Positions 24,097-59,790 of a stretch of 64,000 bases of DNA are shown here, piece by piece. Below the pieces are notes generated by a model, which saw nothing but the letters and a program-made list of their open reading frames with translations, did not search any database and was not told the DNA's origin. This DNA is from Alphaproteobacteria bacterium. Lineage in GTDB: Bacteria; Pseudomonadota; Alphaproteobacteria; Bin95. Position numbers and translations under genes: made by a program. Within the stretch, counting starts at the first letter, position 1; every line of letters starts with the position of its first letter. The stretch spans positions 448,001 through 512,000 of the forward strand of contig OZ219785.1 of the NCBI GenBank assembly GCA_964291285.2, given 5' to 3'.

Positions 24097-24891
24097 CTAT
24101 GGCGACGGGACCGGGTTCGCCTTTCCAGTGCTTTGCCCGGCTTTCGGTCCGCGCCGGCGGCGGCGTTCGGCGCTGCGCTGCTTCTGACGTTCCTCGGCTT
24201 CCTTGCGGCGCCAGGAGTCGCCGTCGATGGCGACGATCTCGGCGTTGTGGACGAGCCGGTCGACGAGGGCGACCAGGCAGGCGGCGTTTGGGAAGGCCTC
24301 GCTCCACTCGGCGAAGGGGCGGTTCGTGGTGATTATGGTTGAGTTCTGCTGGCTGCGGCTTGAGACGATGTTGAACAGCAGGTCGGCGTGGCGGTTGGAG
24401 TAGGAGAGATATCCGACTTCGTCGATGACCAGCAGGTGCTGTCGGGCGTAGAAGCGCAGCCTGCGCTGGAGCAGGGTGTCGGAGTCGATGGCGGCGAGTT
24501 CGCCGAGCAGGCTGGCGGCGGTTGCGAAGCGCACGATGTGGCCTTCGAGGACGGCGCGGTGGGCGATATTGGCGGCGATGGTGGACTTTCCGACGCCGTT
24601 GGGTCCGACCAGTACGAGGTTTGCGGCCTCCTTGAGGAAGTCGAGGGTCATGAGGTCCTCGACGGCCATGCGGTCGCAGCGCCTTGGCCAGTCCCAGTCG
24701 AAGTCTGCGAGCGGCTTGAACTGTCCGAGGCGGGCGTCGGCGAGGCGGCGTTTGAGGCTTCGGGCGCGCTTCTCATCTTCTTCCCACGCGATCAGGGAGG
24801 CGAGCCAGTCGCGCTCCGCGACTTCGCCCCAATGGGCGAGGAGGCCGTGCAGGCCCAGCGCGCGGGCGCGGTTCATGAGGGTGTCGGTCAT
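24097..24891 (-). CDS. istB: IS21 helper AAA+ ATPase
   Basis: DFDWDW, GPNGVGKS, LLVIDEVGY, IITTN, LVDRLVH. Overlaps the istA stop. Confidence 0.93.
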   Translation of the reverse strand: MTDTLMNRARALGLHGLLAHWGEVAERDWLASLIAWEEDEKRARSLKRRLADARLGQFKPLADFDWDWPRRCDRMAVEDLMTLDFLKEAANLVLVGPNGVGKSTIAANIAHRAVLEGHIVRFATAASLLGELAAIDSDTLLQRRLRFYARQHLLVIDEVGYLSYSNRHADLLFNIVSSRSQQNSTIITTNRPFAEWSEAFPNAACLVALVDRLVHNAEIVAIDGDSWRRKEAEERQKQRSAERRRRRGPKAGQSTGKANPVPSP

Positions 24892-26393: not shown

Positions 26394-26394
26394 C

Positions 26395-26829
26395 TCACTC
26401 CCTTCGCGCCGGGCGCAGGCCCGGATAGACCGCCCGGGCGCAGAACCGCCCGCAGTGATCGCAGCGGAACACTCCGGCGGGACGGTCGGGTCCGAAGGGC
26501 CTCCTTCCCGAGCGCCCCGCCGGCATGCCCGCCACAACAGGACGGCGCGGTGAACGGGTCAAAGGGTGATGCGTCACTTTCTGCGCACGGCGCCCCTCCT
26601 CAGGCGCACGGACGCGACGGCGCTCGCGGTAGCGCCGCTGGCGTTCGGCATGCTTGTGACGGCCCCGCCGGCTGTTCTGGTAGCGACGCCCGGCAAGGCG
26701 CAGCGAGCGCCGCCGCGCCCGGCCGCTGCACGGACGCGAGCAGTAGATGTTGCCGTGGTCGCACCGCCGGCACAGCACAACCTGGCGATGGCACGAAGCG
26801 CAGGTGAACAGGCGGGCGGCGTTCCTCAT
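26395..26829 (-). CDS. Cys-rich (Zn-finger-like), Arg-rich ORF upstream of istA
   Basis: CASC..VVLCRRCDHGNIYCSRPC, basic helix, C-terminal CDHC. Ends 1 nt before the istA start. Confidence 0.7.
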   Translation of the reverse strand: MRNAARLFTCASCHRQVVLCRRCDHGNIYCSRPCSGRARRRSLRLAGRRYQNSRRGRHKHAERQRRYRERRRVRAPEEGRRAQKVTHHPLTRSPRRPVVAGMPAGRSGRRPFGPDRPAGVFRCDHCGRFCARAVYPGLRPARRE

Positions 26830-41191: not shown

Positions 41192-42355
41192 ATGTTGCCG
41201 CGCCAGAAATCGCAAGTCGTTCGCGCCCGGCTGGACCGGTTCCCGGCTGTGGCGCTGCTCGGTCCGCGCCAGGCGGGCAAAACCACGCTGGCCGAACTTA
41301 TCGCCGAAGAGCGACCGAGCGTCTATCTCGATCTTGAGGACGCGGCCGACCGGGCGAAGCTGGGCGACGCCGCGCTTTACCTTGCCGGGCACGAAGACAA
41401 GCTGGTCGTCCTGGACGAAGTGCAGCGGGCGCCGGAACTGTTCCAGACGCTCCGGGGCCTCATCGACAGGGGCCGCCGCCGCGGCGTCCGGGCGGGCCGC
41501 TTCCTGCTTCTGGGTCCGGCGTCCATCGACCTGCTCAAACAGTCGGGAGAATCCCTTGCCGGCCGCATCTCCTATGTCGAACTGGGGCCGCTCGACCTTC
41601 TCGAAGTCGATGCCGGTGCGCGCGACAGGCTCTGGGTGCGGGGCGGGTTCCCGGACAGTTTCCTCGCCGGCAGCGGGAAAGACAGCGCCGTCTGGCGGGA
41701 GAATTTCATCCGCACCTACCTGGAGCGCGACATTCCGCAACTCGGGCCGCGCGTGCCGGCGGAAACCCTGCGCCGTTTCTGGACCATGCTGGCGCATATG
41801 CAGGGCGCCACGCTCAACGCGGCCCAGCTTGCGCGCGGGCTGGCAGTCGACGGCAAGACGGTCGCCGGCTATCTCGACCTGCTGGTCGACCTCCTGCTCG
41901 TGAGGCGGCTGCCGCCCTTCCGCGCCAATGTCGGCAAGCGCCTGGTGAAATCGCCGAAGGTCTATGTGCGCGACAGCGGCATCGTCCACACGCTGCTCGG
42001 CCTCGACGACCGCGAAGCGGTGCTGGGTCATCCGGTCGTCGGCGGAAGCTGGGAAGGGTTCGTGCTGGAAAACCTGCTCGGCGCGGTGCCCGAAAGGGCG
42101 AAAGCATGGTTCTACCGGACGGCTGCCGGTGCCGAAATCGACCTGGTGCTGGAGATGCCGGGCGGAAGGCTGTGGGCGGTGGAAATCAAGCGCAGCCTCG
42201 CGCCGAAGCTCGACAGGGGATTCCACCACGCGCGGGAAGACCTCGAACCGGAGCGCTCGTTCATCGTCTATTCCGGCGATGACCGTTACCCGAAGAGCGA
42301 AGGGATCGAGGTAATCGGCTTGCGTGAGCTGCTGGGGATGCTGGCGGCGGCATGA
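41192..42355 (+). CDS. AAA_14 ATPase with DUF4143 (C-terminal PD-(D/E)xK-like) domain
   Basis: GPRQAGKT, LDEVQ, ESLAGR, RGGFP, KSPKVY.RDSG, EIDL...AVEIK. Confidence 0.9.
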   Translation: MLPRQKSQVVRARLDRFPAVALLGPRQAGKTTLAELIAEERPSVYLDLEDAADRAKLGDAALYLAGHEDKLVVLDEVQRAPELFQTLRGLIDRGRRRGVRAGRFLLLGPASIDLLKQSGESLAGRISYVELGPLDLLEVDAGARDRLWVRGGFPDSFLAGSGKDSAVWRENFIRTYLERDIPQLGPRVPAETLRRFWTMLAHMQGATLNAAQLARGLAVDGKTVAGYLDLLVDLLLVRRLPPFRANVGKRLVKSPKVYVRDSGIVHTLLGLDDREAVLGHPVVGGSWEGFVLENLLGAVPERAKAWFYRTAAGAEIDLVLEMPGGRLWAVEIKRSLAPKLDRGFHHAREDLEPERSFIVYSGDDRYPKSEGIEVIGLRELLGMLAAA

Positions 42356-42387
42356 AACGCGCTTGCCCCCGGCTTGTCAAAACCGGC
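42350..42387 (+). repeat. 38-bp direct repeat, right copy (contains the ATPase stop codon)
   Basis: GCATGAAACGCGCTTGCCCCCGGCTTGTCAAAACCGGC. Confidence 0.9.
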
Positions 42388-42402
42388 TACGATGGCCCCG
42401 TC

Positions 42403-43122
42403 ATGGCGATGCTCGAAGTCGAAATCTGGCGCGGGGAGGGCGGCGGCGGCGCCTGGCGGCGCTACGCCGTGCCGCACGAGGCCAACCAGACCGTGCTCGA
42501 CGTGGTGACGCATGTGCAGCGCTATCTGGACCCCTCACTCGCCTACCGTTTCGCCTGCCGGGTGGGCATGTGCGGCTCCTGCGCGATGACCGTCAACGGC
42601 CGCCCGCGCTGGACCTGCCGCACCCATGTCTCGCAGGCCGCGCGCAAGGGCCGGGTGCGGATCGGGCCGCTGCGCAACCTGCCGGTCATCAGGGACCTCG
42701 CGGTGGACATGGCGCCCTTCTTCGAGAAATGGCGCGACGCGGAGGCGCGGTTCGTGCCGCCGCCCGCGCCTGCCGAAGAAGCCGTCCGGCCGGACGAGCC
42801 GGGACGCATGGCCGCCGACGCCGGCATCGAGTGCATCAACTGCGCCGTCTGCTACGCCGCCTGCGACAGCGTGGCCTGGAACCCGGACTATCCGGGCCCG
42901 GCCGTGCTGAACCGCCTCTGGACGCTGGTGAACGACCGGCGCGACGGCGACCGCGACGGCCACCTGGACGCAGCCGGGGCGGGCTGCCACCTCTGCCGCA
43001 GCCACCAGGAATGCGCCGACGCCTGCCCGACCGGCCTCAACCCGACGGCCGCCATCGCCGGCCTGAAGCGCGAGGTCTTCCGCCGCGCGCTCGGCGGCGG
43101 CGCGCGGGGTCCGCGCCGATGA
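42403..43122 (+). CDS. Succinate dehydrogenase/fumarate reductase-like Fe-S subunit
   Basis: CRVGMCGSC..C, CINCAVCYAAC, CRSHQECADACP; LPVIRDL.VD. Confidence 0.88.
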   Translation: MAMLEVEIWRGEGGGGAWRRYAVPHEANQTVLDVVTHVQRYLDPSLAYRFACRVGMCGSCAMTVNGRPRWTCRTHVSQAARKGRVRIGPLRNLPVIRDLAVDMAPFFEKWRDAEARFVPPPAPAEEAVRPDEPGRMAADAGIECINCAVCYAACDSVAWNPDYPGPAVLNRLWTLVNDRRDGDRDGHLDAAGAGCHLCRSHQECADACPTGLNPTAAIAGLKREVFRRALGGGARGPRR

Positions 43123-43445
43123 ACGAGGCCTGGCTGTTCGCGGCGCAGCGCCTCTCGGCAATGGTGATGGCGCCGCTGGTGCTGCTGCATCTGGGGGTCA
43201 TCCTCTATGCCGTCCGGGACGGGCTTTCCGCCGAGGAAATCCTGGCGCGCACCGAGGGCAGCCTGTTCTGGGGCGCGGTCTACGGGCTGTTCGTGCTGGC
43301 CGCCGCCGTGCATGCGCCCATCGGGCTGCGGGCCGTACTGAGGGAGTGGGGGCGCTGGCGGGGCGCAGGCCTGGACATCGCCATGACGATGTTCGGCCTC
43401 GTGCTGCTCGCGCTCGGCCTGCGCGCCGTGGCGGCCGTGCTGTGA
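43119..43445 (+). CDS. Complex II-like membrane anchor subunit
   Basis: QRLSA..M..LVLLH, H..IGLR, three hydrophobic helices; ATGA overlap. Confidence 0.78.
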   Translation: MNEAWLFAAQRLSAMVMAPLVLLHLGVILYAVRDGLSAEEILARTEGSLFWGAVYGLFVLAAAVHAPIGLRAVLREWGRWRGAGLDIAMTMFGLVLLALGLRAVAAVL

Positions 43446-43768
43446 AGCGCGGACCCTGGTGGGCCTTCCTGCTGCACCGGCTTTCGGGCGTGGCGCTGGC
43501 GGTCTTCCTGCCGGTCCACTTCCTCGTGCTCGGCCTCGCGGTGGAGCGCGCGGCGCTTGATCGCGTGCTCGACTGGACGGACAATCCGTGGGTCAAGCTC
43601 GCCGAGGCGGGGCTGGTCGTGTTGCTGGCGCTCCACCTGACGGGGGGCCTGCGCGTGCTGCTGCTCGAGTTCGGGCGCTGGTCCGACCGCCAGCGGTCGC
43701 GGATTGCGGTGGCGGGCGGGCTGGCGCTGCTCGCGGGCTTCGGCTTCCTGGCGGCGGCCTTCGCATGA
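43442..43768 (+). CDS. Complex II-like cytochrome b556 membrane subunit
   Basis: LHRLSG, FLPVH, H..GGLR.L; GTG start overlapping the previous stop. Confidence 0.78.
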   Translation: MKRGPWWAFLLHRLSGVALAVFLPVHFLVLGLAVERAALDRVLDWTDNPWVKLAEAGLVVLLALHLTGGLRVLLLEFGRWSDRQRSRIAVAGGLALLAGFGFLAAAFA

Positions 43769-45525
43769 TCGAGCGCCTCGACCGGGACATACTGATCCTC
43801 GGCTCCGGCGGGGCCGGGCTGTTCGCCGCGCTGCACGCCTACCGCGCCGACCCCGCGCTCGACATCGCCGTCGCAGCCAAGGGCCTGCTCGGCAAGAGCG
43901 GCTGCACCCGCATGGTGCAGGGCGGCTACAATGTGGCGCTCGCGCCCGGCGACAGCCTCGAACGCCATTTCATGGACACGATCGAAGGCGGGGCCTGGAT
44001 CAACCACCAGGAGCTGGCCTGGACGCTGATCGAGGGCGCGGTGGCGCGCATCCGCGAACTGGAAGACGAGATCGGCTGCTATTTCGACCGCAATCCCGAC
44101 GGCAGCATCCACCAGAAGGCGTTCGCCGGCCAGACCTTCGACCGCACCGTCCACAAGGGAGACCTCACCGGCATCGAGATCGTCAACCGGCTGATGGAGC
44201 AGGTCTGGGCGCGGGCGGTGACGCGGCTGGAGGAGCACCGGGCGGCGGCGCTGGTCCCCTCGCGCGACGGCTCCAGGCTCGCCGGCGTGCTGCTGATCGA
44301 CATTCGCACGGGCGTCCTGCGCTTCGTGCGGGCGAAGGCCGTGCTGCTCGCCACCGGCGGCGGCCCGACCATGTACCGCTACCACACCCCCTCCGGCGAC
44401 AAGACCTGCGACGGCATGGCGATGGCGCTGGAGGCGGGCCTGGCGCTGCGCGACATGGAGATGGTCCAGTTCCACCCGACGGGGCTCTATGCCGGCCCCG
44501 GCACGAGGATGACCGGCACCGTGCTGGAAGAGGGCTTGCGCGGCGCCGGCGGCCACCTGCTCGGCGGCGACGGCGCGCGCTTCATGGAGCGCTACGACGA
44601 CCGGCTGGAGCGCGCCACCCGCGACATCGTCAGCCGCGCCATGGCGAGCGAGATGCGTGCCGGGAACGTGACCGAAAACGGCGGGCTCTACATCTCGATG
44701 GCCCATCTCGGCCCCGCCTCGGTGGCCGAGCGCTTCAAGGGCATGGTCGAGCGCTGCCGGGACTGCGGCTTCGACCTCGCCGGCGGGCTGGTCGAGGTGG
44801 TGCCGACCGCGCATTACATGATGGGCGGCGTCGCCTTCGAGCCGGACACGACGACCGCCCTGCCCGGCCTCTACGCCGCCGGCGAGGACACGGGCGGCGT
44901 CCACGGCGCGAACCGGCTCGGCGGCAACGGCGTCGCCAACTCCACCGTCTATGGCGGCATTGCCGGCGACCGGATGGCGGCGGACGCGGCCCGCGAGCGC
45001 GCCTTCCCCGACCCGGACGAGGCGGTGCTGGAGGCCGCCGCCGCGCGCTGCCTGAGGGTCTTCGACCGGCCGCCCGGCGACCTCGCCGGCATCCGCGACC
45101 GGCTCGCGGACCTGATGTGGGACGAGGTCGGCATATTGCGCTCGGCCGGGAGCCTCGAGCGCGCCGAAGCCGGGCTCGCCGCGCTCGCGGCGGAGGTGGA
45201 GGCGGCCGGCGCGCCCGGCGGCCCTACCTTCAACCTCGCCTGGCACGACCGGCTGAACCTGGAAAGCCTCGTGACCGTCTCGCGCGCGATCACGGCGGCG
45301 GCCCGCGCCCGCGAGGACTCGCGCGGCGCACACTACCGCGAGGACTTCCCCGAGACCGGAGACCTCGCCGCCACGCGCTATACCGCCGTGCGTCTGGAGG
45401 ACGGCGAATTCGCCTCCGCTTCGGAACCCGTCGCCTTCACCCGCGTCAGGCCCGGCGAGTCGCTGCTGGACCAGGCCCCGGGACAGGCCGCAGGTCCACC
45501 GGCGGAGCATGATCGTTCAGGTTGA
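43765..45525 (+). CDS. SdhA/FrdA/NadB-family flavoprotein (non-canonical)
   Basis: GSGGAG, DMEMVQFHPT, EGLRG.GG, RDIVSRA, HYMMGG, HGANRLGGN, R.DSRGAH.R.DFP. Confidence 0.88.
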   Translation: MIERLDRDILILGSGGAGLFAALHAYRADPALDIAVAAKGLLGKSGCTRMVQGGYNVALAPGDSLERHFMDTIEGGAWINHQELAWTLIEGAVARIRELEDEIGCYFDRNPDGSIHQKAFAGQTFDRTVHKGDLTGIEIVNRLMEQVWARAVTRLEEHRAAALVPSRDGSRLAGVLLIDIRTGVLRFVRAKAVLLATGGGPTMYRYHTPSGDKTCDGMAMALEAGLALRDMEMVQFHPTGLYAGPGTRMTGTVLEEGLRGAGGHLLGGDGARFMERYDDRLERATRDIVSRAMASEMRAGNVTENGGLYISMAHLGPASVAERFKGMVERCRDCGFDLAGGLVEVVPTAHYMMGGVAFEPDTTTALPGLYAAGEDTGGVHGANRLGGNGVANSTVYGGIAGDRMAADAARERAFPDPDEAVLEAAAARCLRVFDRPPGDLAGIRDRLADLMWDEVGILRSAGSLERAEAGLAALAAEVEAAGAPGGPTFNLAWHDRLNLESLVTVSRAITAAARAREDSRGAHYREDFPETGDLAATRYTAVRLEDGEFASASEPVAFTRVRPGESLLDQAPGQAAGPPAEHDRSG

Positions 45526-45675
45526 AACAGCAGGGGCACGCCCCCGCATCTCCGCCCGGAAGCCCGGACTCGCACCCGGCCGGGACATGACATCGTACGG
45601 CCCGCCCCACGGTCGGTCCTGTCTTGCCGCCTTTCCGGTCTTGGGGAAACCGCCCGCCTCTGTCACAATGTTCCG

Positions 45676-46707
45676 ATGACCCGTTCTTCCGCCAAGCGGT
45701 CGAGTTCCCGTTCTCTCGCCAATCTCGCTCCGGACGAAGTGAAATCCGTGGTGGACGGTTACACGGCGATTTACGACGCCGGAGAGCAGGGCAGAAGAGA
45801 GCAATACCGCTCGCTCGTAAATCACTATTACGACCTGGTTACCGACTTCTACGAATTCGGCTGGGGCCAGTCCTTTCACTTCGCGCCAAGGCGCCGGGGC
45901 GAGAGCTTCAAGGCTTCGATGGTCAGGCACCAGCATTATCTCGCCGACCGGCTGGTCCTGAAGCCGGGCATGCAGGTGCTCGATGTGGGATGCGGGGTCG
46001 GCGGACCGATGGGCAACCTGGCGCGCTATTCCGGCGCCGGCTTCGTCGGCATCAACAACAACACCTACCAGATCGAACGCGCGAAACATCACACCCGGGA
46101 TGTCGGGTCGCGGTGCCGCTTCATCCACGGCGACTACATGCGGATTCCCGAAGGCGAGGATTGCTACGACGCCGCGTTCGCCATCGAGTCCATGCCCCAC
46201 GCGCCGGACAAGGCAGGCGCGTTCCGCGAAATCCTGCGCGTCCTGCGCCCCGGCGCCTGTTTCGCGGGTTACGAGTGGTGCCTCACCGATGATTTCGACC
46301 CCGAAAACGCGGAGCACCAGCGGATCAAGAACGAGATCATGGTTGGGGATGCGCTGCCGGAAATCGCGTCCATGCCGGAGATTTGCGACGCATTGCGCAC
46401 CGCCGGGTTCGAGCTGCTGGAAGCCAGGGACCGCGCCCCCGAGTCGGATCCGCAAACGCCCTGGTACCGCGCCCTGCAGGGCCGCGACTTCACGCTTTCG
46501 AGCATCCCGCGCACGCCTTTCGGCCGCGCCCTCACCAATCAGACGCTGCGGGTCGGAGAGAGGCTGCGGCTGTTTCCTGAGGGCTCCCGCGCGGTCAGCA
46601 CGCTGCTGAACGCGGCGGCCGACGCGCTGATCGAAGGCGGCAGGTCCGGCATCTTCACGCCGATGTTCTTTTTCCTGGCCCGCAAGCCTCCGCGCTCCGG
46701 CGACTGA
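45676..46707 (+). CDS. smt: Sterol C24-methyltransferase (ERG6/SMT family)
   Basis: YYDLVTDFYEFGWGQSFHFA (SMT region I), LDVGCGVGGP, IESMPHAP, LRPG, YEW, PWY, GIFTPMF. Confidence 0.9.
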   Translation: MTRSSAKRSSSRSLANLAPDEVKSVVDGYTAIYDAGEQGRREQYRSLVNHYYDLVTDFYEFGWGQSFHFAPRRRGESFKASMVRHQHYLADRLVLKPGMQVLDVGCGVGGPMGNLARYSGAGFVGINNNTYQIERAKHHTRDVGSRCRFIHGDYMRIPEGEDCYDAAFAIESMPHAPDKAGAFREILRVLRPGACFAGYEWCLTDDFDPENAEHQRIKNEIMVGDALPEIASMPEICDALRTAGFELLEARDRAPESDPQTPWYRALQGRDFTLSSIPRTPFGRALTNQTLRVGERLRLFPEGSRAVSTLLNAAADALIEGGRSGIFTPMFFFLARKPPRSGD

Positions 46708-46742
46708 ACGCCGCGCGTCCTCGGCCGCAGGGCCGCCGGCGC

Positions 46743-49700
46743 TCAGGACAGGGAACGGGCGGAAGCCGCTTCCGGCAGGGGCGGCACCGACGCGCCGGCG
46801 CAGGCAGCAGGGGCGGCGAGGTTCAACCGGTCCCGGCGGCGGCGCTCATAGAGGCTGAGCGCATGCAGCGGGAAATACTGCCGGTAGAGCACGTAATCCA
46901 GGAGCGCCGTCCGGAAGAACACGCCGGCCATGTTCTGTTTGGGCCACCCCCCTTCGGCGTCCTGCGTGTCGAGCAGGAACCGGGCGCCGCGCGACACCGC
47001 GGCCCAGTTCGAGTCGCCCGCCTCGAGGAGCGCGATCAGCGCCCACGCGGTCTGGATGACCTGGCTCTCGCCGTGCGGGACATAGCGGCCGGTCAGGCAG
47101 CCGCTGTGGTGCTCGCCCCATCCTCCGTCTTCCCGCTGGCGTTCCAGCAGCCAGCGGCAGGCCGAGCGCAGCGCCGGGTCGCCGGGACGGGACCCGGCGG
47201 CAAGAAGGCCCCTGATGCCGAACAGGGTGCCGTAAATGAACTGGACGCCCCATACGCCGCGCCAGGAGCCGTCCATCGCCTGCGTCCGGCGCAGCCAGGA
47301 TTCGGCCCGGGAGACGGCGCCCGCCGCGCCGTCCGCGATCTCCGGAAACCGCTCCCTGCACGCGGCGAGCGCGGCGAGGCAGGATGCCGTGCATTCCACA
47401 AAGGAATGCTCCGTCATCGAGTCGCCGAACATCTCGGCCGGATTCAGCCACTCCAGGCCGAAAGCCGAACGCCGCGCCTCATAGCTGCCGAAGCCGCCGT
47501 CGCGGTTCTGGCCGCGCAGCATGAAGGCGACCGCATCGCCGAGCGCCGCCCTGTCGGCGTCGCCGCCCCGTGCCGCGATGAGTCCGAGCACCGCCTCCGC
47601 CGTGCAATCGCTCACCGGCCAGCCATGCCACCCGCCCGCAAAGCACCAGCCGCCCCTGGGGTCGGTTCGATAGGCTTCGCGAAACCCTTCGAAGCTCGTA
47701 TCGATCTGCTCGCCCAGCAGGAAACCGGCGCCGCGCGCGAGCGCGTCCCCGACCCCGGCGGGCTCGGGCAGCGCCGCCAGCGCCTGCAGCGCGAACCCCG
47801 TGTCCCAGGAGGCGCTTCTCGCTCCGGTGACGCGCGCGCCCTCTTCCTCGTCTTCCCAGATCCAGCCGTCCAGCTGCGCGAGCGCCTGCCGGCAGTCGGC
47901 GTCGTCCGGATCGTGCAGCCACAGCGCAAGGATGTTGAGAAGGCCGCTGACCGGGGAGATGCTTGTGTGGCTGGTGGTCTGCAGCTCCCACCTGATGCGC
48001 CCGACAATCGCATCCGTGCATCGCGCGCGGAGGCGCCTGCCGTGAACCCGCTCGAACAGCCGCGCCAGCCCGTATCCGGCCCTGAGCCAGAGGCCCGGCC
48101 TCGCATACAGGTCGGCATCCCGCAGGCGACCCCGGGCAGCGGAGAAGTCAACGCCGGCAAAGCCCTGCGGGAACAGCTCCTCCCGCAGCGATTCGATCAG
48201 CGGCGTGACGGGCGCCTGGAACCGGCGCGCGTAAATCGCCGCCATCGCCATGTAGATGAGCCGCGTGTGGCAGTACCAGTTCGAGGGGTGCAGCGGTATC
48301 CGGCGCGGCAGGCTCCACAGTTCCGGCAGAACCGCGTTCACCCCGCGCCAGTCATAGAGGTTGAGGAGCGCCAGCCAGAATTTTCCCCAGCTCGGAATGC
48401 CGAGAACCCCCTCGGCCTGCAGGAACCGCCGGGCCGGCTCGACCAGGGGATCCTCCCGCCCGACGCCCAGCAGCCTCGCCGCGACATAGACGAGTGCGGT
48501 GACGAACAGGTGAGGCGGCGAGTGCTCGTGCAGGCCCCATGCGCCGCCCTCGAGCCGGGTCCGCTCGAAGGAGCGCAGCACACGCCGGCGGCGGCCCGGT
48601 TCCAGCGGCCGTCCGATTAGATGGTGCAGCAGCGCATATTGCGCGGTGAGCATGGGGCACCAGACCATCTCGCCTTCCCACGCGCCGTCCTCTCTCTGGA
48701 GGCTCAACAGGCGCGCGGCCGCGCTCTTCAATGCCGGACCGGCATCGGGCGATTCGACCTCCTTCGAGCGGGCGGGCCTGGAGGCCTCGCCTCCGGAAGG
48801 CATGGAGTACAGGAACGCGCGGGCCAGGCTGTCCCGGGTTTGCCTGCTTTCTTCCCGGCCCTCGCGACTCGCCTGCCGGAGCTGCCGGACACCGCGCTGG
48901 AGCCACCAGAGGCGAACGGCGAGCGCATTGAAGATGGTCCGGGTCCGATGCGAAGCGAACCGGCGGAAGGAGAACGGAATCTCCCGGGTCAGCGCCCGGG
49001 CCACCGTTCCGCAGAATGCGAGGGTCATGCCGGTCGCGGACCGGTCCTCGCAGGCGAGTATCCGCGTGGTCCGGTCCCGGTACGCGGAATTCGCCCGCCA
49101 GCCCCGGTAGATCGCGGATCTGAGGACCACCGCTTCCACGCGATGATCGGCGAAGACCTCGTAGAGCCCCATTGCGAGGAACTCGGGAATGCGGGTCGCC
49201 CGGAAGCGTTCGGCGGCGAAGTCCCGAAAGCGCTCGTTCTCGGCGAGCGTCAGCGCATCGCCGAACCCGAGTGTCATGCCGACCGCCGTCATGGGATGAT
49301 AGTGCCCGGCGGCGTCGCCGATCAGCACCCGGCGCGGGCTCAGCTGATTGGCCGCCGCATGGAATTGGCCCGCCCGCAACGCCTCGACGAAGGCCGGCCC
49401 GAGAGCCCCCGGCAGCAGCCCGGCGCAGGATTCCGACAGGAAGGCAATCCGGTCCCGGGGCGTCCAGCGGTCCAGCGGAAGATCGACGATGACCCGGACG
49501 CAGCCGTCCGCCAGGCCGTATATGAGGATCGGACCCGGCCCGCCCAGCACCACATGCCCGTAGCCTTCGAAGGGCAGGTCCGCCCCGCCTATGGTGACCC
49601 CCAGCATCCGCGAGCAGAGCATCGGGTCCGTGGAGAGACCCAGCGACTGGCGCACGATCGAGGCCCGGCCGTCGGCGCCGACGACGCGCGCGGCGGTTAT

Positions 49701-50144
49701 GGAGCGCTCATCGCCGCCAACGGAAAAGGCGACCCGCCCGTCATCGACCGCATTGACCCGCGCGTGGGAAATGAAATCGACGCCGGCTTCGTCCGCGATG
49801 GCGTCGCGGAGGCTCGAGACGAGCAGCGCATGGTCGCATGCCAGGCCCCGGGACCCGTCCGGATAGGGAAGCAGGATCGGCTCCGAGCCGTCCTCCGGAA
49901 ACACCACGAATCCCTTGCCCGGCGTGGCTCCGGGCAGCCGGTCCGTGTCTATCCCGATGTCGCGCAATATCCTGACGGCCGGCGGATGCAGCCACTCGCC
50001 GGCCAGGCGCGCCGATGCCCTGGGATTGGCTTCGAGCAGGGCCACCCGGGCGCCCTTGCGCGCATGGGCGAGCGCGCAGAGGCTCCCCACCGGGCCCGCG
50101 CCGACAATGGCTGCGTCGTAAGGCCGCCCGGCGGCACCGCTCAT
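46743..50144 (-). CDS. Squalene epoxidase-oxidosqualene cyclase fusion protein (1133 aa)
   Basis: N-terminal GAGPVG, GEWLHP, GADG..S.VR, GDAAGHYHPMTAVGMT (SQE-like). C-terminal QW repeats, IPSWGKFWL, WYCHTRLIY, HGWPVSDCTAE, WGVQFIYGT (OSC). ATGA overlap with the P450 stop fixes the start. Confidence 0.9.
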   Translation of the reverse strand: MSGAAGRPYDAAIVGAGPVGSLCALAHARKGARVALLEANPRASARLAGEWLHPPAVRILRDIGIDTDRLPGATPGKGFVVFPEDGSEPILLPYPDGSRGLACDHALLVSSLRDAIADEAGVDFISHARVNAVDDGRVAFSVGGDERSITAARVVGADGRASIVRQSLGLSTDPMLCSRMLGVTIGGADLPFEGYGHVVLGGPGPILIYGLADGCVRVIVDLPLDRWTPRDRIAFLSESCAGLLPGALGPAFVEALRAGQFHAAANQLSPRRVLIGDAAGHYHPMTAVGMTLGFGDALTLAENERFRDFAAERFRATRIPEFLAMGLYEVFADHRVEAVVLRSAIYRGWRANSAYRDRTTRILACEDRSATGMTLAFCGTVARALTREIPFSFRRFASHRTRTIFNALAVRLWWLQRGVRQLRQASREGREESRQTRDSLARAFLYSMPSGGEASRPARSKEVESPDAGPALKSAAARLLSLQREDGAWEGEMVWCPMLTAQYALLHHLIGRPLEPGRRRRVLRSFERTRLEGGAWGLHEHSPPHLFVTALVYVAARLLGVGREDPLVEPARRFLQAEGVLGIPSWGKFWLALLNLYDWRGVNAVLPELWSLPRRIPLHPSNWYCHTRLIYMAMAAIYARRFQAPVTPLIESLREELFPQGFAGVDFSAARGRLRDADLYARPGLWLRAGYGLARLFERVHGRRLRARCTDAIVGRIRWELQTTSHTSISPVSGLLNILALWLHDPDDADCRQALAQLDGWIWEDEEEGARVTGARSASWDTGFALQALAALPEPAGVGDALARGAGFLLGEQIDTSFEGFREAYRTDPRGGWCFAGGWHGWPVSDCTAEAVLGLIAARGGDADRAALGDAVAFMLRGQNRDGGFGSYEARRSAFGLEWLNPAEMFGDSMTEHSFVECTASCLAALAACRERFPEIADGAAGAVSRAESWLRRTQAMDGSWRGVWGVQFIYGTLFGIRGLLAAGSRPGDPALRSACRWLLERQREDGGWGEHHSGCLTGRYVPHGESQVIQTAWALIALLEAGDSNWAAVSRGARFLLDTQDAEGGWPKQNMAGVFFRTALLDYVLYRQYFPLHALSLYERRRRDRLNLAAPAACAGASVPPLPEAASARSLS

Positions 50145-51550
50145 CGGAAAACGCTCGGCTCCACGCGGCGGCGGTAGCGGACCCGGCACGGCGTCTCGGG
50201 CCCCGTCACCCAGCTGCCGTAATTCGGGCGTGGAAACTTCGGCCCGGCGACGAAGTCGAAGCGGTCGAGCAGAACCGTCCAGATCGCCTTGAGCTGCATA
50301 TAGGCGAAATTCTTGCCCATGCACGCATGTTTGCCGCCGCCGAAGCCGATCAGGGCGTAATGATGTTGCCTGTCCTCGCTGGCGGGCGGCGCGAAACGGT
50401 CCGGGAAGAACCGCTCCGGATCGGCGAAAACCCGGGGCAGGCGGTGGGAAACCGCCGGCGACACCATGGCCATGGTGCCGGCGGGCACGACACTGCCCCC
50501 GTAACGGAGCGGTTCGAGCACCTTCCGGATCAGCAATATCAGCGGCGGGTGCAATCGCTCGCATTCGCGCACGGCGTTTTCCATCGCCGGCTGGCGCTGA
50601 AGGCTGTCGAGGCTCATCGACCCCGCTTCGCGGTAAACCTCCCGCGCCTCCTCCCTCAACCGTGCCAGGTAGGAGGGCGTCCTGAAGAGCTCCAGGCCGG
50701 TCCAGGTCGCGAGCACCGCGCTGGTGTGCTGGCCGGCGAACAGCACGGTCAGCAGGATCCCCGTGATCTCGTCGTTGCTGAGCGCACGGCCGTTCTTGTA
50801 GCGCGCATTCATGAGCGTTTGCATGAAGTCGTCGGGACCGGCCCCGGCATTGCGGCGCGCCGCCATGATTCCACCGAAGAGCTCCGCCACCTTCCGGCGG
50901 GCCCGGTCGCGGCTTCGATGCGCCGGGGTGGGAAGTCTGGGAAGGAAGAATCCGAGCGTGTTGATGCCCTTCTGCAGGTCGTGGTAGGCCTCGGCGAAGC
51001 CGGTATCCACCCGGTCGCGAACCTCCTGCCCGATCAGGCAGCGGCTGGCGATCCTGACGGTGAGCTCGTTCATCGCGTGCGGCAGGTCGATTTCGCCCTC
51101 CCCGCCGAGGGCGTCGGCGAAAGCGCTCGCCTCCTCGAACATGATGAGGGCGAATTTCCGCATGGCGGCTTCGCGGAGCGCGGGAAACAGGAACCCCAGC
51201 TGCTCCGCCATGATTTCCGGCGAGGTGTCATAGGCCACGCCGCGCCCGAAGACGGGCACGGTGAAGCGATAGACCGCCTTGGCGTTCAACTGGGTCTCGG
51301 GCGCCCTGAAATAGAAGTCGTGGGCTTCCGGCCCGGTGAAGAGAACGAAGTCGCGAAGTCCCAGCCTGAAGCGGAAAAGGTCGCCATGCCGGCGCCAGCC
51401 GCGGCTCAGCATGGCGACCGGGTCCCGCTGAAATTCCCTGAGATGGCCGATCAGCGGCCAGCTGCCCGCCAGTTCCGGAACGGGCGCCTCCGACGGCGGC
51501 GGGAGGTCCGCGGACTGCAGCGTCGCCATGCTGTGAGACCGGTTCGCCAT
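50141..51550 (-). CDS. cyp51: Sterol 14-alpha-demethylase (cytochrome P450 CYP51)
   Basis: Y.F..PVFGRGVAYD, AGQHTS I-helix, ECERLHPP, FGGGKHACMG heme motif. Confidence 0.9.
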   Translation of the reverse strand: MANRSHSMATLQSADLPPPSEAPVPELAGSWPLIGHLREFQRDPVAMLSRGWRRHGDLFRFRLGLRDFVLFTGPEAHDFYFRAPETQLNAKAVYRFTVPVFGRGVAYDTSPEIMAEQLGFLFPALREAAMRKFALIMFEEASAFADALGGEGEIDLPHAMNELTVRIASRCLIGQEVRDRVDTGFAEAYHDLQKGINTLGFFLPRLPTPAHRSRDRARRKVAELFGGIMAARRNAGAGPDDFMQTLMNARYKNGRALSNDEITGILLTVLFAGQHTSAVLATWTGLELFRTPSYLARLREEAREVYREAGSMSLDSLQRQPAMENAVRECERLHPPLILLIRKVLEPLRYGGSVVPAGTMAMVSPAVSHRLPRVFADPERFFPDRFAPPASEDRQHHYALIGFGGGKHACMGKNFAYMQLKAIWTVLLDRFDFVAGPKFPRPNYGSWVTGPETPCRVRYRRRVEPSVFR

Positions 51551-51558
51551 CCCCGTCC

Positions 51559-52659
51559 TCAATGGATGAACGGCAGCATCGAGAAGCGCGCCCGCTGCGT
51601 GTAGCGCTCCCACAGCTCGCCATATTTGGCGCGGCAGCGGCGCTCATCGCGTCTCGAGCGGTGCCACAGGAGACCCGCCAGCCACGCGGGCAGCAGGTAG
51701 GGCCCCCAGGATGCGAGCCCGGTGGTCAGCGCGAAAGCGAGATAGATACAGATCTCGCCGGTATAGTTGAGGTGCCGTCCGATACCCCAGAATCCGGAGA
51801 CCAGGAGGCGCCCGTCCAGGGTCCGGGCGGGTTGCCCCCAGATCCTGATATCGGGGTCGCGCTTGAAGCGGTGCTTCTGCTGGTTGGCGCCGCGGAAGAG
51901 CCAGAAGCCGAAGGCGAACAACAGGACGATGGCCGCCGCGGCGGCCGGAGACAACGGGTCCGGCGCGTGAACCAGCCACCAGCCGGGAAGGCAGTAGAAG
52001 AACGGCACCAGCACGTAGTCGCCCCAGACCAGCATCCATCCGAAGCGCTCGCTGATGATGTCCCAAGTGTGGATCATGCCGTGCTCGAACTGGAAGTAGT
52101 TGAGCACGTAGAGGAAGGTGAACGCCTGATAGAGCGCCATCGCCAGGGTAAGCTCGCCATAGGTTTCCCACTGCACGACGGCGAAGGAGGCGTTGACGAG
52201 CGCCAGACCGATGAGCGAGGGGCGGTAGCTGAAGAGCTTCAGGTCGATCCCGAACCAGACCGGGCCGGCATCGACGCCGCCGAAATAGCCCCGCCAGAAT
52301 CCCGGCGCCGCGCCGGGCGCCCGCATCCCCCGCCAATACAGCCAGCCGGCAAGGGCGAAGGCGAAGGCGTTCGCCGCCACGAACAGGGCGGCGAAGTGGG
52401 TGTAGAGCACCGAAAGGGAGAACCAGCCGAGGAACTGGGCGAGGCCCGCCGCGAGCGCGGCGATCAGGAAGAGCGCGAGGCCGTTCAGCTTGTAGATGCG
52501 CTCATTGCCCTCGGCGTCCGGCCCCGCGATGCGGCGGCCGGGAAGGAGCATCGAACCCAGGAACAGCAACGCGACGAACGCCAGCGCCATTGCCGCCGCT
52601 TCGAGCAGCGCTCCGCCCGACAGCGCGGACGACAGGAGGAACGCTTCAGGCGGGGACAC
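51559..52659 (-). CDS. Sterol reductase, ERG24/ERG4/DHCR7 family (probably C14-reductase)
   Basis: YKLNGL, DLKLF..RP, TWDIISERFGWMLVWGD, FRGANQQK..FK, LLVSGFWG.GRHLNY.GE, HR..RDE.RC..KYG..W. Confidence 0.9.
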   Translation of the reverse strand: MSPPEAFLLSSALSGGALLEAAAMALAFVALLFLGSMLLPGRRIAGPDAEGNERIYKLNGLALFLIAALAAGLAQFLGWFSLSVLYTHFAALFVAANAFAFALAGWLYWRGMRAPGAAPGFWRGYFGGVDAGPVWFGIDLKLFSYRPSLIGLALVNASFAVVQWETYGELTLAMALYQAFTFLYVLNYFQFEHGMIHTWDIISERFGWMLVWGDYVLVPFFYCLPGWWLVHAPDPLSPAAAAAIVLLFAFGFWLFRGANQQKHRFKRDPDIRIWGQPARTLDGRLLVSGFWGIGRHLNYTGEICIYLAFALTTGLASWGPYLLPAWLAGLLWHRSRRDERRCRAKYGELWERYTQRARFSMLPFIH

Positions 52660-53731
52660 CGCCGTCCCCGGACCCGCGGGCCAGAGTTTCCCGCCACTTG
52701 CGCACCGTCACTTCCTGAAAGGCCCTGACCACGGGATTGAACTCGACGGGGCGGGCGTCCCAGTGTTTCTCGTAACCCTCTTGCTCCGCTTCGAGCGCGA
52801 ACCGGTCCTGGTCGAGCAGGGGGGCGATCAGCATACGGTTGGAGATCTTCATGACCGCGGTCATGGCGAAACGCGGAATGCGCACCGGCAGGAACGGAAT
52901 TTTCAGAGACTTGAAATAGAACAGGAAGAACACCCGGGTGGTGCGCTCGTCCATGGGCAGCACGAACAGCCAGTGCTTGATTGCGTCATCGGTGTTCGAC
53001 CACTGGTAGGGATATTCGTAGCAGAGCTCCATGCGGTTGGTGTTGAGCCGCTCGTGGTCCACGAACAGTCCTGAAATGCGCCCGCGCCCGACCCGGGTAT
53101 CGTAAGCGAGATGCACATTGTCCCCGACGGTTTCGCAGGAGGCGAGCGTGGCTCCGTCGAAGGGCCGGTAGCGGCGGTGCAGATGCGCGTGGGTGAAGTC
53201 GCTCACATTGTCGATCACCATCGAGTGGTGCGCCGACCACGTGAAGCGCAGCGGCACGCAGGTCCAGCGCCCGGGCCCCTCCAGTTCGGGAATCTCCGGG
53301 ATCCGGTGCTGTTCCGCCTGCTCCGGGTCGCCGGGGAAGAGCCACACCAGCCCGTAGCGGACCTTTACCGGGTAGGTCTTGAGCGCAAGCCGCGGAAAGC
53401 TCCGCCCGTTGCCGTCATAGGGAACCCCGGCGGGCCGTTCCCTGCCGCCATATTCCCAGCCGTGATAGGCGCACACCAGCCGGCATCCCTCCACATGGCC
53501 GATGGAGAGCTTGAGCTGGCGGTGCGCGCAGCGGTTCTCGATCGCCTGGAACGAGCCGTCCGTTCCCCGGAACAACGCAATCGAATGTTTCCAGAAGACG
53601 ACCTCGACCACCGTCCCCGGCTTGACCCGGCGCACTTCCTCGACCGCATACCAGTAATTCGGGTCCATGCCCGCGGCGCGCGCCTGCTGGCGGAGCGTGC
53701 CGGCCTCCTCGAAGCAGGGCGGCGGCCTCAT
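52646..53731 (-). CDS. Rieske non-heme iron oxygenase (SdmA-like, candidate sterol C4 oxidase)
   Basis: CAHR...CAYHGW Rieske cluster, NVSDFTHAHLH Fe site; located inside the sterol operon. Confidence 0.8.
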   Translation of the reverse strand: MRPPPCFEEAGTLRQQARAAGMDPNYWYAVEEVRRVKPGTVVEVVFWKHSIALFRGTDGSFQAIENRCAHRQLKLSIGHVEGCRLVCAYHGWEYGGRERPAGVPYDGNGRSFPRLALKTYPVKVRYGLVWLFPGDPEQAEQHRIPEIPELEGPGRWTCVPLRFTWSAHHSMVIDNVSDFTHAHLHRRYRPFDGATLASCETVGDNVHLAYDTRVGRGRISGLFVDHERLNTNRMELCYEYPYQWSNTDDAIKHWLFVLPMDERTTRVFFLFYFKSLKIPFLPVRIPRFAMTAVMKISNRMLIAPLLDQDRFALEAEQEGYEKHWDARPVEFNPVVRAFQEVTVRKWRETLARGSGDGGVPA

Positions 53732-54888
53732 GTCGCGCTCCCGCCGGGCACCGCATGCAAGCCCTGGCGCGGCGCGGGAGGTTCCGCCTCTCTCGCCGCG
53801 CGTTGCTCCGGGGCGTCGGCGCGCGGCGGTTTCGCGGACGGATTTACGATCGCGTTGCGGCCGTGGTGGAACGCGTAGGCTTCGTGAACCGCGTCGCGGA
53901 TGCCGGTCGGCCGGTAGCCGAGCTCGCGCTGCGCCTTGCCGGTGTCGGCATGGCGGCGCTTTTTCAGCAGGCGTATGGCGCCGGGGGTGAAACGCTGGGG
54001 AAAGTCCGGGTGGAAGCGGCTCAGGTAGGAGCTCGCCACTTCCGAAAAGGCGAGCATCAGGGGCGCCGGAATCCGCCGGCGCGGCCTCGGGACGCCCGAG
54101 ACCTCCTCATACAGGCCCACGATCTCCGAGATGGTCTTGTACTCGCTGCTGAAGATGTATTTCTCGCCCGAGCGGCCATGATGCATGCACAGCAGGTGCC
54201 CCTCGACAATGTCGCGCGCCGCGACGAACTCGAACCCGCCATCGATATAGGCATGAAGCTTGCCGTTGGTGTAGTCGCACAGGGTCCTTCCCAGCCGCGA
54301 GGGCAGATAGTCGGCGCCTCCCACCACCGCGCAACAGGTCGCGACCACGACATCCTGCCCCGTGGCCGCCGCGCGCCAGCATTCCTGCTCAACCAGCGAC
54401 TTGCTGCGCTCGTAGGGCATCGTGCGCTCCATGGGATAGAACGGCATCGTCTCGTCGCTGGGCGCGGACGGATCGTCCGGATCGTAACCGACCGCGCTGA
54501 AGGAGCCGGTTACGACCACGCGCCCGGCCTCGGCCTCCCGCGCCGCCTGCAGCACGTTGCGGGTGCCGCGAACATTGCACTCGAACAGCTCCCGGCGATG
54601 GGCGCGGTTGCCCCCGACGGTCGAGATCTTGGCCGCGACATGATAGACGCCCTGACATCCGGCGAGCGCCTGCCTGGTGGCATTCAGGTCCCGGATGTCG
54701 CCGAACACGCGCTCCACATCGAGGCCTTCCAGCGCCTCATTATTGTCCTCATGCCTCAGCAACACCCGGACCCGCACGCCGTCGTCGAGCAGCCGGCGCA
54801 CGAGATTGGCGCCGACATGTCCGGCCGAACCGGTAACGAAAACGGGCGGCATCGACGAACCCGCCGGCATGCTCGACCGGGACGTCAT
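53728..54888 (-). CDS. Extended SDR / 3-beta-HSD-like (SdmB-like, candidate C4 decarboxylase/reductase)
   Basis: VTGSAGHVG, YHVAA, NVRGT.NVL, YERSK; first gene of the sterol operon. Confidence 0.78.
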   Translation of the reverse strand: MTSRSSMPAGSSMPPVFVTGSAGHVGANLVRRLLDDGVRVRVLLRHEDNNEALEGLDVERVFGDIRDLNATRQALAGCQGVYHVAAKISTVGGNRAHRRELFECNVRGTRNVLQAAREAEAGRVVVTGSFSAVGYDPDDPSAPSDETMPFYPMERTMPYERSKSLVEQECWRAAATGQDVVVATCCAVVGGADYLPSRLGRTLCDYTNGKLHAYIDGGFEFVAARDIVEGHLLCMHHGRSGEKYIFSSEYKTISEIVGLYEEVSGVPRPRRRIPAPLMLAFSEVASSYLSRFHPDFPQRFTPGAIRLLKKRRHADTGKAQRELGYRPTGIRDAVHEAYAFHHGRNAIVNPSAKPPRADAPEQRAAREAEPPAPRQGLHAVPGGSAT

Positions 54889-55320
54889 CGCAGCCGCGTT
54901 CCGCTAAAGGGAACGGTGAGCCAGTCTAGTTCCGCGAGACGGGGACGGAGTCTTGCCGACAATGCCGCTCACTCACCGGCCGGTATCGCAACGGCAAGCA
55001 TATCGATTCGAATCCGCGCCTGTTTGCACTCTGAAATATCGCGGGTTCTTCATGCCTATACCTCACATCTTCGAGAAGACCACGGTATCGGCCGACCAAT
55101 ATGAAACCAGACGCCACAAAGCGTATCGAAATTTACCTGATTGTCAAATGCAACATGCCTATAACGCTCACCATTCGCCCGGAAAGCGAACGCCCGACCC
55201 GGGAAACCCCCTTGCGTCATCCCGGCCTCAGTCCGCCCCGGCGCCCGGAGCGGCCCGGGCGCCATGCCGAGCACATGAAAAAGCCCTCGAAAACTTCAAT
55301 GTTTCCAATGGCTTTCAGTA

Positions 55321-55363
55321 GTTTCGGGGGCAGGATTTGAACCTGCGACCTTCAGGTTATGAG
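55321..55363 (-). other. 3' half of tRNA-fMet (att-site remnant, not an intact tRNA)
   Basis: Minus strand CTCATAACCTGAAGGTCGCAGGTTCAAATCCTGCCCCCGAAAC: anticodon loop, T-arm and a degenerate acceptor strand. The 5' half is absent. Confidence 0.85.
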
Positions 55364-55459
55364 ACCCGTCTTTATCTTGCGGCCACGCGCGGCCACCGAG
55401 TTCTTTTCTCGTGTTGATCGTTGTGTCGACGGATTTTCCGGCGATCTTACAATGGCGGC

Positions 55460-56600
55460 ATGCCAGAAAAACCCGGAAAACGCGTCGCCAGGGTGCGCAC
55501 GACGATTACCAGGCGGGCCGTCGAGGCGTTCCAGCCGGGCACAAGCCCTGGATCTCCTAGGACGACAAGCTGACCGGTTTCGGCGTTCGCATCCAGCCAA
55601 CGGGGACCAAGGTCTTCCTCGTCAACTACCGCGCCGGCGACGGTGGGCGGAAGCGCCCAACAAGCGGGTCGCGATCGGTTACTACGGCAAGGTCACCGTC
55701 GAGCAGGCCCGGAAGCTGGCCCAGAACCTGCTCGGCCAGGTCGCCGGCGGCGCCGGTCCCGCCTATGAACGTGCCAAGGCGCGCGCGATGCCCACCCTCG
55801 GCGAGGCCTTCGAAGAGTACATGGCGGTCAATCCCAACCGTTCGAAACGGACCGGCGAGCTCTACCGTTACGAGGCGAACCGCTACCTGGGCGACTGGCT
55901 CACGCGCACTCTCGACTCCATTGCCCGCCGGGATGTCGAGATGAGGTTCAACAGCATCACCGCGGACCATGGATGGTCACCGGCCAACCGGGCAATTTCA
56001 TTGCTGCGCTCCGTCTATCGCCGGCCCTGCGTCGACTACGAAGGGCTGCGTCCCCCTGGAGCTTCCGACCACCCGGCAACTCGCGGTCATTCTCGAGCGC
56101 CGGCAGGCCGAGGCCGGCGACTACCCGGTCGAGGCCCGCGGCTGGGCGTTCCCCTCGCGCACCGCCGCCACCGGCCATGTTCAGGACCCGGATCACCTCT
56201 AATACCAACGGTCGTTGATTGGAACCTATAGCAGAGCCTCCCTCCGCAGCTCGCCCCCTGAGCCGAGGCCTCCTACTGCAAGAGGTAATCTCCGCCGAGA
56301 GAGGCTAATCGGTTCTTATCTGTGGCCGGTGGTATAAGCCCGCATCGGCAAGACCGGCGGCACCAAGTTCTGGTTCCACGGGCTGCGGAACAGTTTCATC
56401 ACCGTGGCCGAGCGCGAGCTGATGCTGCCGCCCTCACTGGCCAAGCGGCTGGTCAACCACGCCCGGCCCAACGATGTCACCGAGGGCTATGCGGCCGACT
56501 GGACCATCGCGCAGCTTCGGGAGCCGGCTCAGAAGATCGCCGACCGGATCGAGGTCTTGACCCGAGAGCCGCAAGCTCCCTGGCCAGTGCCCGCGGCAAC
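55460..56600 (+). pseudogene. Decayed tyrosine integrase (arm-binding domain type)
   Basis: Fragments across frames: TITRRAVEA, DDKLTGFGVRIQPTGTKVFLVNYR, VEQARKLA, PTLGEAF, GWAFPS, FHGLRNSF, LVNHA..DVTEGY. In-frame TAG, frameshifts and an internal insertion. Confidence 0.85.
56202..56335. mobile_element. About 134-bp MITE-like insertion inside the integrase
   Basis: Short imperfect IRs ATACCAACGGTCG / TGGCCGGTGGTAT. Removal brings 'DPDHL' next to 'ARIGKTGGTKFWFHGLR'. Confidence 0.55.
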
Positions 56601-59600: not shown

Positions 59601-59790
59601 GTCTGCCGGACGACAGGACTCCAGCCGTCACAGCGTTGGTGCGAGATTGGCCTGTATTGCTGACGAGCGTCGTCTGCGCATGGGCCTCCTGGGGCAGGGC
59701 CCACAGCGCGGCGAGCAGCACGAGCGCAAGGCCGGCGCCCGCGCGCGGCGCAGCGCCCAAATGCAGCTTCCCGACAGGGATCGCGGCCAT
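56660..59790 (-). pseudogene. Autotransporter adhesin with Calx-beta-like domains, frameshifted near 59390
   Basis: Signal peptide and 'AHA|QTTLVSNTGQ' domain in ORF 59356..59790. Continues in another frame (LLPNTRY...) with two Calx-beta-like repeats, 'AWLARFGRTVA' linker and a beta-barrel ending in W. Confidence 0.8.

Follow-up and report, generated by a model that had tools for sequence, protein, structure and literature searches.

A probable MsbE-type squalene monooxygenase–oxidosqualene cyclase fusion, with a seven-residue deletion, in a bacterial sterol cassette

Bacterial proteins that join a squalene monooxygenase (squalene epoxidase, SE) to an oxidosqualene cyclase (OSC) in one chain have been in print since 2020. 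The msb locus of a gammaproteobacterial symbiont of Melophlus sarasinorum (Mohanty et al. 2020, Mar Drugs 18:124, PMC7074536) was described, in the parts of that paper available, as msbA (NAD(P) oxidoreductase), msbB (Rieske protein), msbC (sterol reductase), msbD (demethylase), msbE (the fusion) and msbF (methyltransferase), and MsbE was called a lanosterol cyclase from its key valine. Here we describe a fused gene of this kind in a 64,000-nucleotide stretch of DNA (the window; positions 448,001–512,000 of contig OZ219785.1, assembly GCA_964291285.2, Alphaproteobacteria bacterium). The open reading frame (ORF), at 46743..50144 on the minus strand, encodes 1133 residues. The product is very probably an MsbE-type bifunctional squalene monooxygenase/lanosterol-type OSC, the last gene of a horizontally mobile sterol cassette in a sponge-associated, alphaproteobacterium-like lineage. 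The activity and product assigned to it are predictions from the sequence.

The window has the same six-gene order as msb, and in both genomes the squalene synthase is found elsewhere. The host lineages differ: the nearest relatives of the window are Alphaproteobacteria by title, whereas msb is gammaproteobacterial. The window copy is further marked by a 7-residue deletion. It may be noted that the likeness to MsbE is drawn from its published description; sequence similarity was shown only to homologues from sponge-associated metagenome-assembled genomes (MAGs), at 68–95% identity. In eukaryotes the two enzymes are separate proteins (human SQLE and OSC), whereas in the window they form one chain.

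Two further papers, each consulted in part, bear on this locus. A cluster of this type was found in 115 of 537 Ircinia MAGs, spread over 10 phyla, and horizontal transfer and low omega (purifying selection) were reported (Kelly et al. 2022, Microbiome 10:164, PMC9531527); this spread and the horizontal transfer fit the 80 loci described below. Those ‘clusters of steroid genes’ (CSGs) hold DFR-like, hypothetical, ERG24, CYP51 and LSS genes on one strand, with a convergent SMT or FDFT1, and this arrangement matches the window. The last gene was named LSS/ERG7 there, the epoxidase half being unmentioned in the main text searched. ‘Fused SMO/OSC homologs’ of uncultured bacteria, which have the same architecture, are mentioned by Brown et al. 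(2023, Nat Commun 14:1859, PMC10070321), in the text available, only as trimmed before tree building; they occur in clusters from sponge metagenomes that carry sdmAB and functional sterol methyltransferases. The available parts of Hoshino & Gaucher 2021 and of a 2025 MBE cyclase paper do not mention an SMO/OSC fusion under the words ‘fusion’ or ‘fused’, which occur there in a vector reference and, in the MBE paper, also for an unrelated drimenol synthase. The sequence-only reading of this DNA had implied that the fusion was new; it is already published, and it is widespread among relatives. The window adds a further member of a described sponge-symbiont fusion, not a new kind.

The fused reading frame and its relatives

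As listed from its first ATG, the ORF runs from 46743 to 50564 on the minus strand and is free of stops on translation. The true start was placed at the ATG at 50144 because third-position GC jumps there, from 0.43–0.58 upstream (the first 140 codons) to about 0.85 from this ATG on, the junction of the two halves included, and because this ATG shares the bases ATGA with the TGA of the preceding P450 gene. A start at the ATG at 50564, which would give the longer ORF, was ruled out by codon-position GC and by overlap with the CYP51 gene.

Pfam matches above their cut-offs follow each other in the expected order along the protein: FAD_binding_3 at residues 10–301, SE (PF08491) at 154–345, SQHop_cyclase_N at 473–766 and SQHop_cyclase_C at 777–1100. 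Between the halves lies a linker, residues 451–470, GGEASRPARSKEVESPDAGP (48735..48794, minus strand), recognized by motif search, by conservation and by the predicted local distance difference test (pLDDT) of an AlphaFold2 model. Conservation at residues 451–465 is 0.44, the lowest inside the two domains, and residues 451–461 have a pLDDT below 50. From W414 to G487 the distance is 72 residues in most sequences (51 of 63), and it varies from 43 to 90 in deeper fused clusters; the constant length of the linker region may only mirror the relatedness of the sequences.

The junction was compared with contigs (not raw reads) from other sequencing runs, over 46700–50200. Nearly all of the stretch is present in three runs from a single coded study, and 0.2–0.34 of its words in several ‘sponge metagenome’ runs. 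In run X1 one 11,169-nt contig covers the whole interval with zero differences; X1 is possibly the source of the window DNA. The linker is bridged in X2 by a 2448-nt contig (47522–49948) with one changed letter and in X3 by a 661-nt contig (48642–49302) with none. A 333-nt contig (48625–48957) of the RNA library X22 also crosses the linker, with 12 differences, and comes from a relative; DNA carry-over is possible, and the library gave no cover in 7 of 30 bins, which says nothing about transcription. Another X22 contig, likewise from a relative, joins 49328 to 49651 and skips 322 nt in the epoxidase half, with 47 letters on the shorter side of the join.

A protein-cluster search scored 8000 candidates, 1221 of them at E <= 1e-3, and the best 120 were listed, the window protein among them. 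All 120 are 1098–1184 residues long, align over 95–100% of the query and have Pfam domains of SE as well as of the cyclase; the 119 others are full-length fusions, 71–96% identical to the window protein. In a genome search with one genome per species, a relative was encoded in 396 stretches, and the best 80 of these (68–95% identical) were analysed. By record title, these 80 are MAGs of Alphaproteobacteria (Rhodospirillales, Paracoccaceae), Nitrospirales, Ca. Binatia and Thermodesulfobacteriota, of Gammaproteobacteria (Thiotrichales, Chromatiales, Ca. Porisulfidus, Ca. Rariloculaceae, Ca. Poriferihabitaceae), and of Acidimicrobiales, Opitutales, Vicinamibacterales and Bryobacterales. Those nearest to the window fusion have Alphaproteobacteria titles.

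Both halves are in the same frame in all 80 loci, with neither a stop nor a frame change at the junction. A script scored 78 of the 80 as having no stop between the first position of the epoxidase match and the last position of the cyclase match. Of the two that were flagged, the ‘stop’ of L056 proved on inspection to be the natural gene end. The other, L043 (L043:10001-13450), has an in-frame TAG at codon 650 (Gln in relatives) in the cyclase half, and of the upstream genes only CYP51 was found; either the copy is in decay or the TAG is an error of sequencing. L016 (L016:9000-10100), one of the 78, has a transposase-like ORF in place of the first ~168 codons and is 91% identical from residue 169; the fused gene of this MAG is disrupted by an insertion element.

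Beyond these close relatives, clustering at 50% found an N-terminal SE domain in 13 of the best 150 cyclase representatives, at 39–72% identity to that of the window. A FastTree phylogeny was made from 84 near-full-length cyclase domains, 67 partial representatives being excluded; in this midpoint-rooted tree, which carries no support values, a single clade contains the ten full-length fused sequences together with four unfused ones. Members of the deeper fused clusters and of the nearest unfused ones carry almost no names, apart from one ‘lanosterol synthase’ and one Myxococcota MAG.

It is clear that both enzymes are joined in a single uninterrupted ORF of 1133 residues, as the sequence-only reading had claimed: the translation is free of stops, the domains are in order, third-position GC is continuous, and the contigs of X2 and X3 carry the linker intact with 0–1 differences. 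A stop between the domains, which that reading had named as refuting, is found at the junction neither in the contigs nor in the 80 related loci. The fusion is confirmed as a genuine single-polypeptide epoxidase-cyclase. That the single ORF is an artefact of assembly or gene calling, made of two adjacent genes, has a negligible probability: no point in favour of it was found, the GC signal runs on across the junction, the junctions of the related loci and the 119 full-length clusters speak against it, and at the level of the assembly the bridging contigs refute it.

The cyclase half and its predicted product

The cyclase half (residues 471–1110; 46815..48734, minus strand) was assigned by TIGR01787 (494.6 bits, above the cut-off of 322.7), by its match to human lanosterol synthase and by five QW-type motifs. 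Its best solved relative is that human OSC, 1W6K (HMMER, E 1.5e-130). When the AlphaFold2 model was compared by Foldseek, the cyclase half matched 1W6K with a target-normalised template modelling (TM) score of 0.82 and a root-mean-square deviation of 2.9 over 667 columns, as expected of the two alpha-alpha barrel domains of a sterol-type class II triterpene cyclase. No single solved chain covering both halves was found by Foldseek with this model.

The catalytic region reads HGWPV-S-DCTAE (47595..47627, minus strand), with HGWPV at residues 840–844 and DCTAE at 846–850, as located by motif search and by HMMER alignment to 1W6K. In this alignment His840 corresponds to human C449, Val844 to V453 and the catalytic Asp846 to D455. 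The OSC type that had been read from DCTAE, where squalene-hopene cyclase has DxDD, is borne out, and the placement of HGWPV made by eye, with its lanosterol-type valine, agrees with the alignment. The second segment, TGARSASWD (residues 773–781; 47802..47828, minus strand), lies in the region of human G380–D388. It is present as had been read. In the HMMER alignment, which has a gap of one residue here, G-A-R-gap-S stands against human G380-T381-N382-G383-S384; this puts Ala at T381, in place of the residue that would follow from the ungapped alignment by eye. Compared with the human enzyme, the window cyclase keeps the catalytic Asp and V453 and differs in His at 449, Ala at 381 and a loop shorter by one residue.

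The sequence-only reading had called this an unusual product-determining region, and this part of it does not hold. HGWPV[ST]DCT[AG]E occurs in 118 and GA[RK]SxSWDT in 110 of the 120 clusters (among the matches listed). The short GAR-S type loop is found in 35 of the 84 diverse cyclase domains, as counted from the printed alignment, unfused ones of bacterial type included, and the G(Y/T)NGSQLWD form is that of the other half of the tree. HxWPVSDCTAE with GAR-SxxWDT is normal in the bacterial OSC clade, fused or unfused. The idea was dropped after the alignment of the 84 domains and the motif counts of the 120 clusters: the region is ordinary for its clade, because the motifs are widespread and because only position 453 tracks the product in bacteria.

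The last point comes from Wei et al. (2016, PMC4919349), in the portions of that paper available. Among the three positions linked to the product, bacterial cyclases conserve only 453, and in every bacterium tested lanosterol was paired with V453 and cycloartenol with I453. By this bacterial rule Val844, at the position of human V453, predicts lanosterol as the product of the cyclase half. A different product (cycloartenol, parkeol or an atypical tetracycle, for example) appears unlikely; the sequence-only reading had named parkeol or an atypical product beside lanosterol. His at the human-449 position is a cycloartenol-type residue in eukaryotes (Wei et al. 2016), the Ala at 381 and the shortened loop depart from human OSC, and in the available part of the 2025 MBE paper one metagenomic bacterial OSC made lanosterol together with parkeol. 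Against another product, the rule for position 453 has held in every bacterium tested while the other two positions vary, the His/Val and GAR-S patterns are clade-wide, and this residue also led to the annotation of MsbE as a lanosterol cyclase (Mohanty et al. 2020, from the text available).

The epoxidase half and the 21-nt deletion

The squalene monooxygenase half (residues 1–450; 48795..50144, minus strand) was assigned by Pfam (SE, PF08491, 66.4 bits against a cut-off of 20.1; FAD_binding_3, 71.4 against 22), by its match to human SQLE and by Foldseek. Its best solved relative by sequence is human SQLE 6C6N (E 7e-25), and Foldseek gave the human SQLE fold with a TM of 0.75 normalised to the target. 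In the AlphaFold2 model its C-terminal helices extend to about residue 443. GAGPVG (GxGxxG) at 15–20, GADGRAS (DG motif) at 156–162 and GDAAG (GD motif) at 276–280 are all present; we take these to be the motifs with which group A flavoprotein monooxygenases bind flavin adenine dinucleotide (FAD). A profile search found no second SE-family gene in the 6.1-Mb genome, which is scored 100% complete.

This copy carries an in-frame deletion of 21 nt (7 codons) after residue 268 (49331..49332, minus strand), located by contigs of other runs and by alignment of homologues. The 21 nt are inserted behind 49331 in X2, X3 and X22 and not in X1. The direct repeat GCCCGCGC flanks the site, in keeping with replication slippage. 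The seven missing residues directly precede GDAAG. All 62 other aligned homologues have them, and so do 76 of 78 related loci, two loci being unmatched by the search pattern; three of the residues (R, Y and G), all missing from the window allele, are at least 90% conserved. Among the 120 listed clusters this short form was seen in the window protein alone, and the pattern count gave an even shorter match in one further cluster. The seven-residue deletion allele appears to be the sole new point of this locus.

The structure of the window protein was predicted by AlphaFold2 together with that of a control, a 96%-identical relative that has the segment, using the same alignment reordered. Mean pLDDT was 82.8 for the window protein and 86.9 for the control, with a predicted TM (pTM) of 0.84 and 0.87. 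The models diverged around the deletion: in blocks of 10, pLDDT over residues 261–290 was 50/40/57 in the window model against 84/93/89 in the control, and over residues 161–180 it was 63/61 against 92/84. Apart from the linker, pLDDT fell below 50 in the window model at 1–5, 265–283, 908–911 and 1114–1133; in the control this was so at both ends and in the linker only. The models give a hint, though not proof, that the flavin-binding core of the window allele is disturbed.

An alternative to a bifunctional enzyme is that the deletion has left the epoxidase half dead or crippled, so that the protein is a cyclase only; the strain would then make no sterol, or would rely on oxidosqualene from the host or from neighbouring cells. 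Activity of one domain only, which the sequence-only reading had named as refuting, would then apply to this allele. We consider this a serious possibility, although not the favoured one. In its support, the lost segment is shared by all the aligned homologues and by nearly every related locus (two being unmatched by the pattern), and also by X2 and X3, which bear the same organism label and otherwise differ by one letter. The loss is immediately before the FAD GD motif, local confidence collapses in the window model and not in the control, and the genome has no second SE-family gene. On the other hand, the deletion keeps the reading frame and spares GxGxxG, DG and GDAAG, and no decay is seen elsewhere in the ORF, both halves being 95% identical to those of L001. 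AlphaFold2 confidence does not measure activity, and the deletion allele is dominant in its sample, where it is carried by one contig at depth 141.7.

The sterol cassette and the proposed function

The fusion is the last of five genes on one strand, in the order sdmB-sdmA-erg24-cyp51-fusion, and consecutive genes overlap by a few bases (ATGA overlaps). The first gene encodes an SdmB-like NAD(P)-dependent reductase of C-4 demethylation (53728..54888, minus strand; Pfam Epimerase and 3Beta_HSD), and the second an SdmA-like Rieske oxygenase of the same step (52646..53731, minus strand; Pfam Rieske and VanA_C). They are followed by an ERG4/ERG24-family sterol reductase (51559..52659, minus strand; PF01222, 233.4 bits), a C-14 reductase by its pathway position, and by a CYP51 sterol 14-alpha-demethylase (50141..51613, minus strand; Pfam p450), whose best solved relatives are all CYP51 (top 6mcw, E 4e-105). 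A sterol C-24 methyltransferase gene (45676..46707, plus strand; Pfam Sterol_MT_C, 76.9 bits, and a methyltransferase domain) is convergent and ends 35 nt from the fusion stop.

When the neighbours were searched by tblastn in the 80 related loci, the counts were 63 each for SdmB, SdmA and ERG24, 65 for CYP51 and 55 for the methyltransferase; the spacing is mostly fixed, and gene order is conserved in about 63. Immediately upstream of the methyltransferase, on its strand, the window has frdAB-like genes for the iron-sulfur and flavoprotein subunits of a succinate dehydrogenase/fumarate reductase (42328–45525). By tblastn these flanking genes occur in none of the 80 loci; the cassette therefore sits in differing genomic surroundings. 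In 14 loci (L020, L024, L026, L027, L029, L031, L047, L053, L054, L056, L057, L060, L064 and L069) the fusion stands without SdmB, SdmA, ERG24 or CYP51 within the fetched DNA, L060 being too short to judge. L033, L042, L044, L046 and L080, with Binatia or Thermodesulfobacteriota titles, have SdmA and SdmB downstream on the opposite strand, i.e., a rearranged cassette.

The genome is in 5 contigs, and its only SE and cyclase genes are the two halves of the fusion; a squalene-hopene cyclase was not found by profile search. Two SQS_PSY-family genes lie elsewhere. The squalene-synthase-like gene at G000:C2:1271083-1271955 (L082), far from the cluster, has squal_synth as its best NCBIfam match (118 bits, under the cut-off). 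The sterol methyltransferase is single-copy, and a second ERG4/ERG24-family gene lies far from the cluster (G000:C4:575560-576615, L086; 138.9 bits).

Upstream of the operon, 54889–56300 has a lower GC of 0.63 and no convincing gene; the ORF at 55359–56231 (plus strand) has a weak match, at the cut-off (27.2 bits), to a phage-integrase Arm DNA-binding domain. This region could be a mobile-element remnant beside the sterol cassette. Two further ORFs of the window, both on the minus strand, are a Mutator-family transposase (405.8 bits; 16211–17542) and one that has a Mu-transposase C-terminal domain (24888–26558). No tRNA gene that could be an integration site is present in the 64,000 nt, and a promoter and terminator scan of 45400–55600 gave no sites above shuffled sequence. 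An ORF of ~1014–1075 residues with Calx-beta domains (56660–59704, minus strand) is unrelated to the sterol cluster.

In the function that we propose, the N-terminal flavoprotein half would use FAD, O2 and a reductant to form 2,3-oxidosqualene at the membrane surface. In the C-terminal half Asp846 of DCTAE would protonate the epoxide, and cyclisation to lanosterol would be expected from Val844. CYP51, ERG24, SdmAB and the methyltransferase would then process the cyclase product. The fusion may serve a 1:1 stoichiometry and the co-location of two membrane-surface enzymes. In the window copy, slippage would recently have removed 21 nt, and with them seven almost invariant residues, just ahead of the FAD GD motif.

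Several results weigh against this assignment, besides the loss of the three conserved residues and the lowered local confidence described above. No assay of any such fused enzyme was found in the literature searched, subscription journals being mostly outside the search. The cyclase half scored 735.9 bits with TIGR03463 (osq_cycl), under the cut-off of 851, and its residues at the T381 and C449 positions fit neither the eukaryotic lanosterol nor the eukaryotic cycloartenol pattern. SdmA and SdmB are below their equivalog cut-offs of 600 (402 bits with NF052579 and 294 with NF052578), and no dedicated reductase partner for the epoxidase was identified.

The sequence-only reading had also proposed substrate channelling. 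The pTM values of 0.84 and 0.87 were obtained for a chain of 450 + 680 residues, in which the larger domain makes up only 60% of the length; they imply a low predicted inter-domain error, from which we infer that the halves are held in a fixed arrangement. Such a defined arrangement would permit a hand-over of the oxidosqualene intermediate. Channelling itself may occur, with the two-domain pTM as indirect support. A more far-reaching version, which we regard as doubtful, is that a fixed, co-evolved interface passes 2,3-oxidosqualene directly from the flavin site to the cyclase channel with no host-specific partner, the window allele being a natural epoxidase-dead, cyclase-only variant that lives on oxidosqualene from the sponge or from neighbouring symbionts. 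If this were true, direct hand-over without a host partner would explain the free movement of the cassette between phyla in sponges.

For the MsbE-type bifunctional enzyme that we favour, the near-identical natural pair of alleles, with and without the seven residues, is a ready test of whether the two activities are separable. Within the sterol cassette, the committing enzyme is the fused epoxidase-cyclase, and sterol synthesis by bacteria in sponges has a bearing on the origin of sponge sterols and on the reliability of steranes as ‘sponge biomarkers’ (Brown et al. 2023, in the text available).

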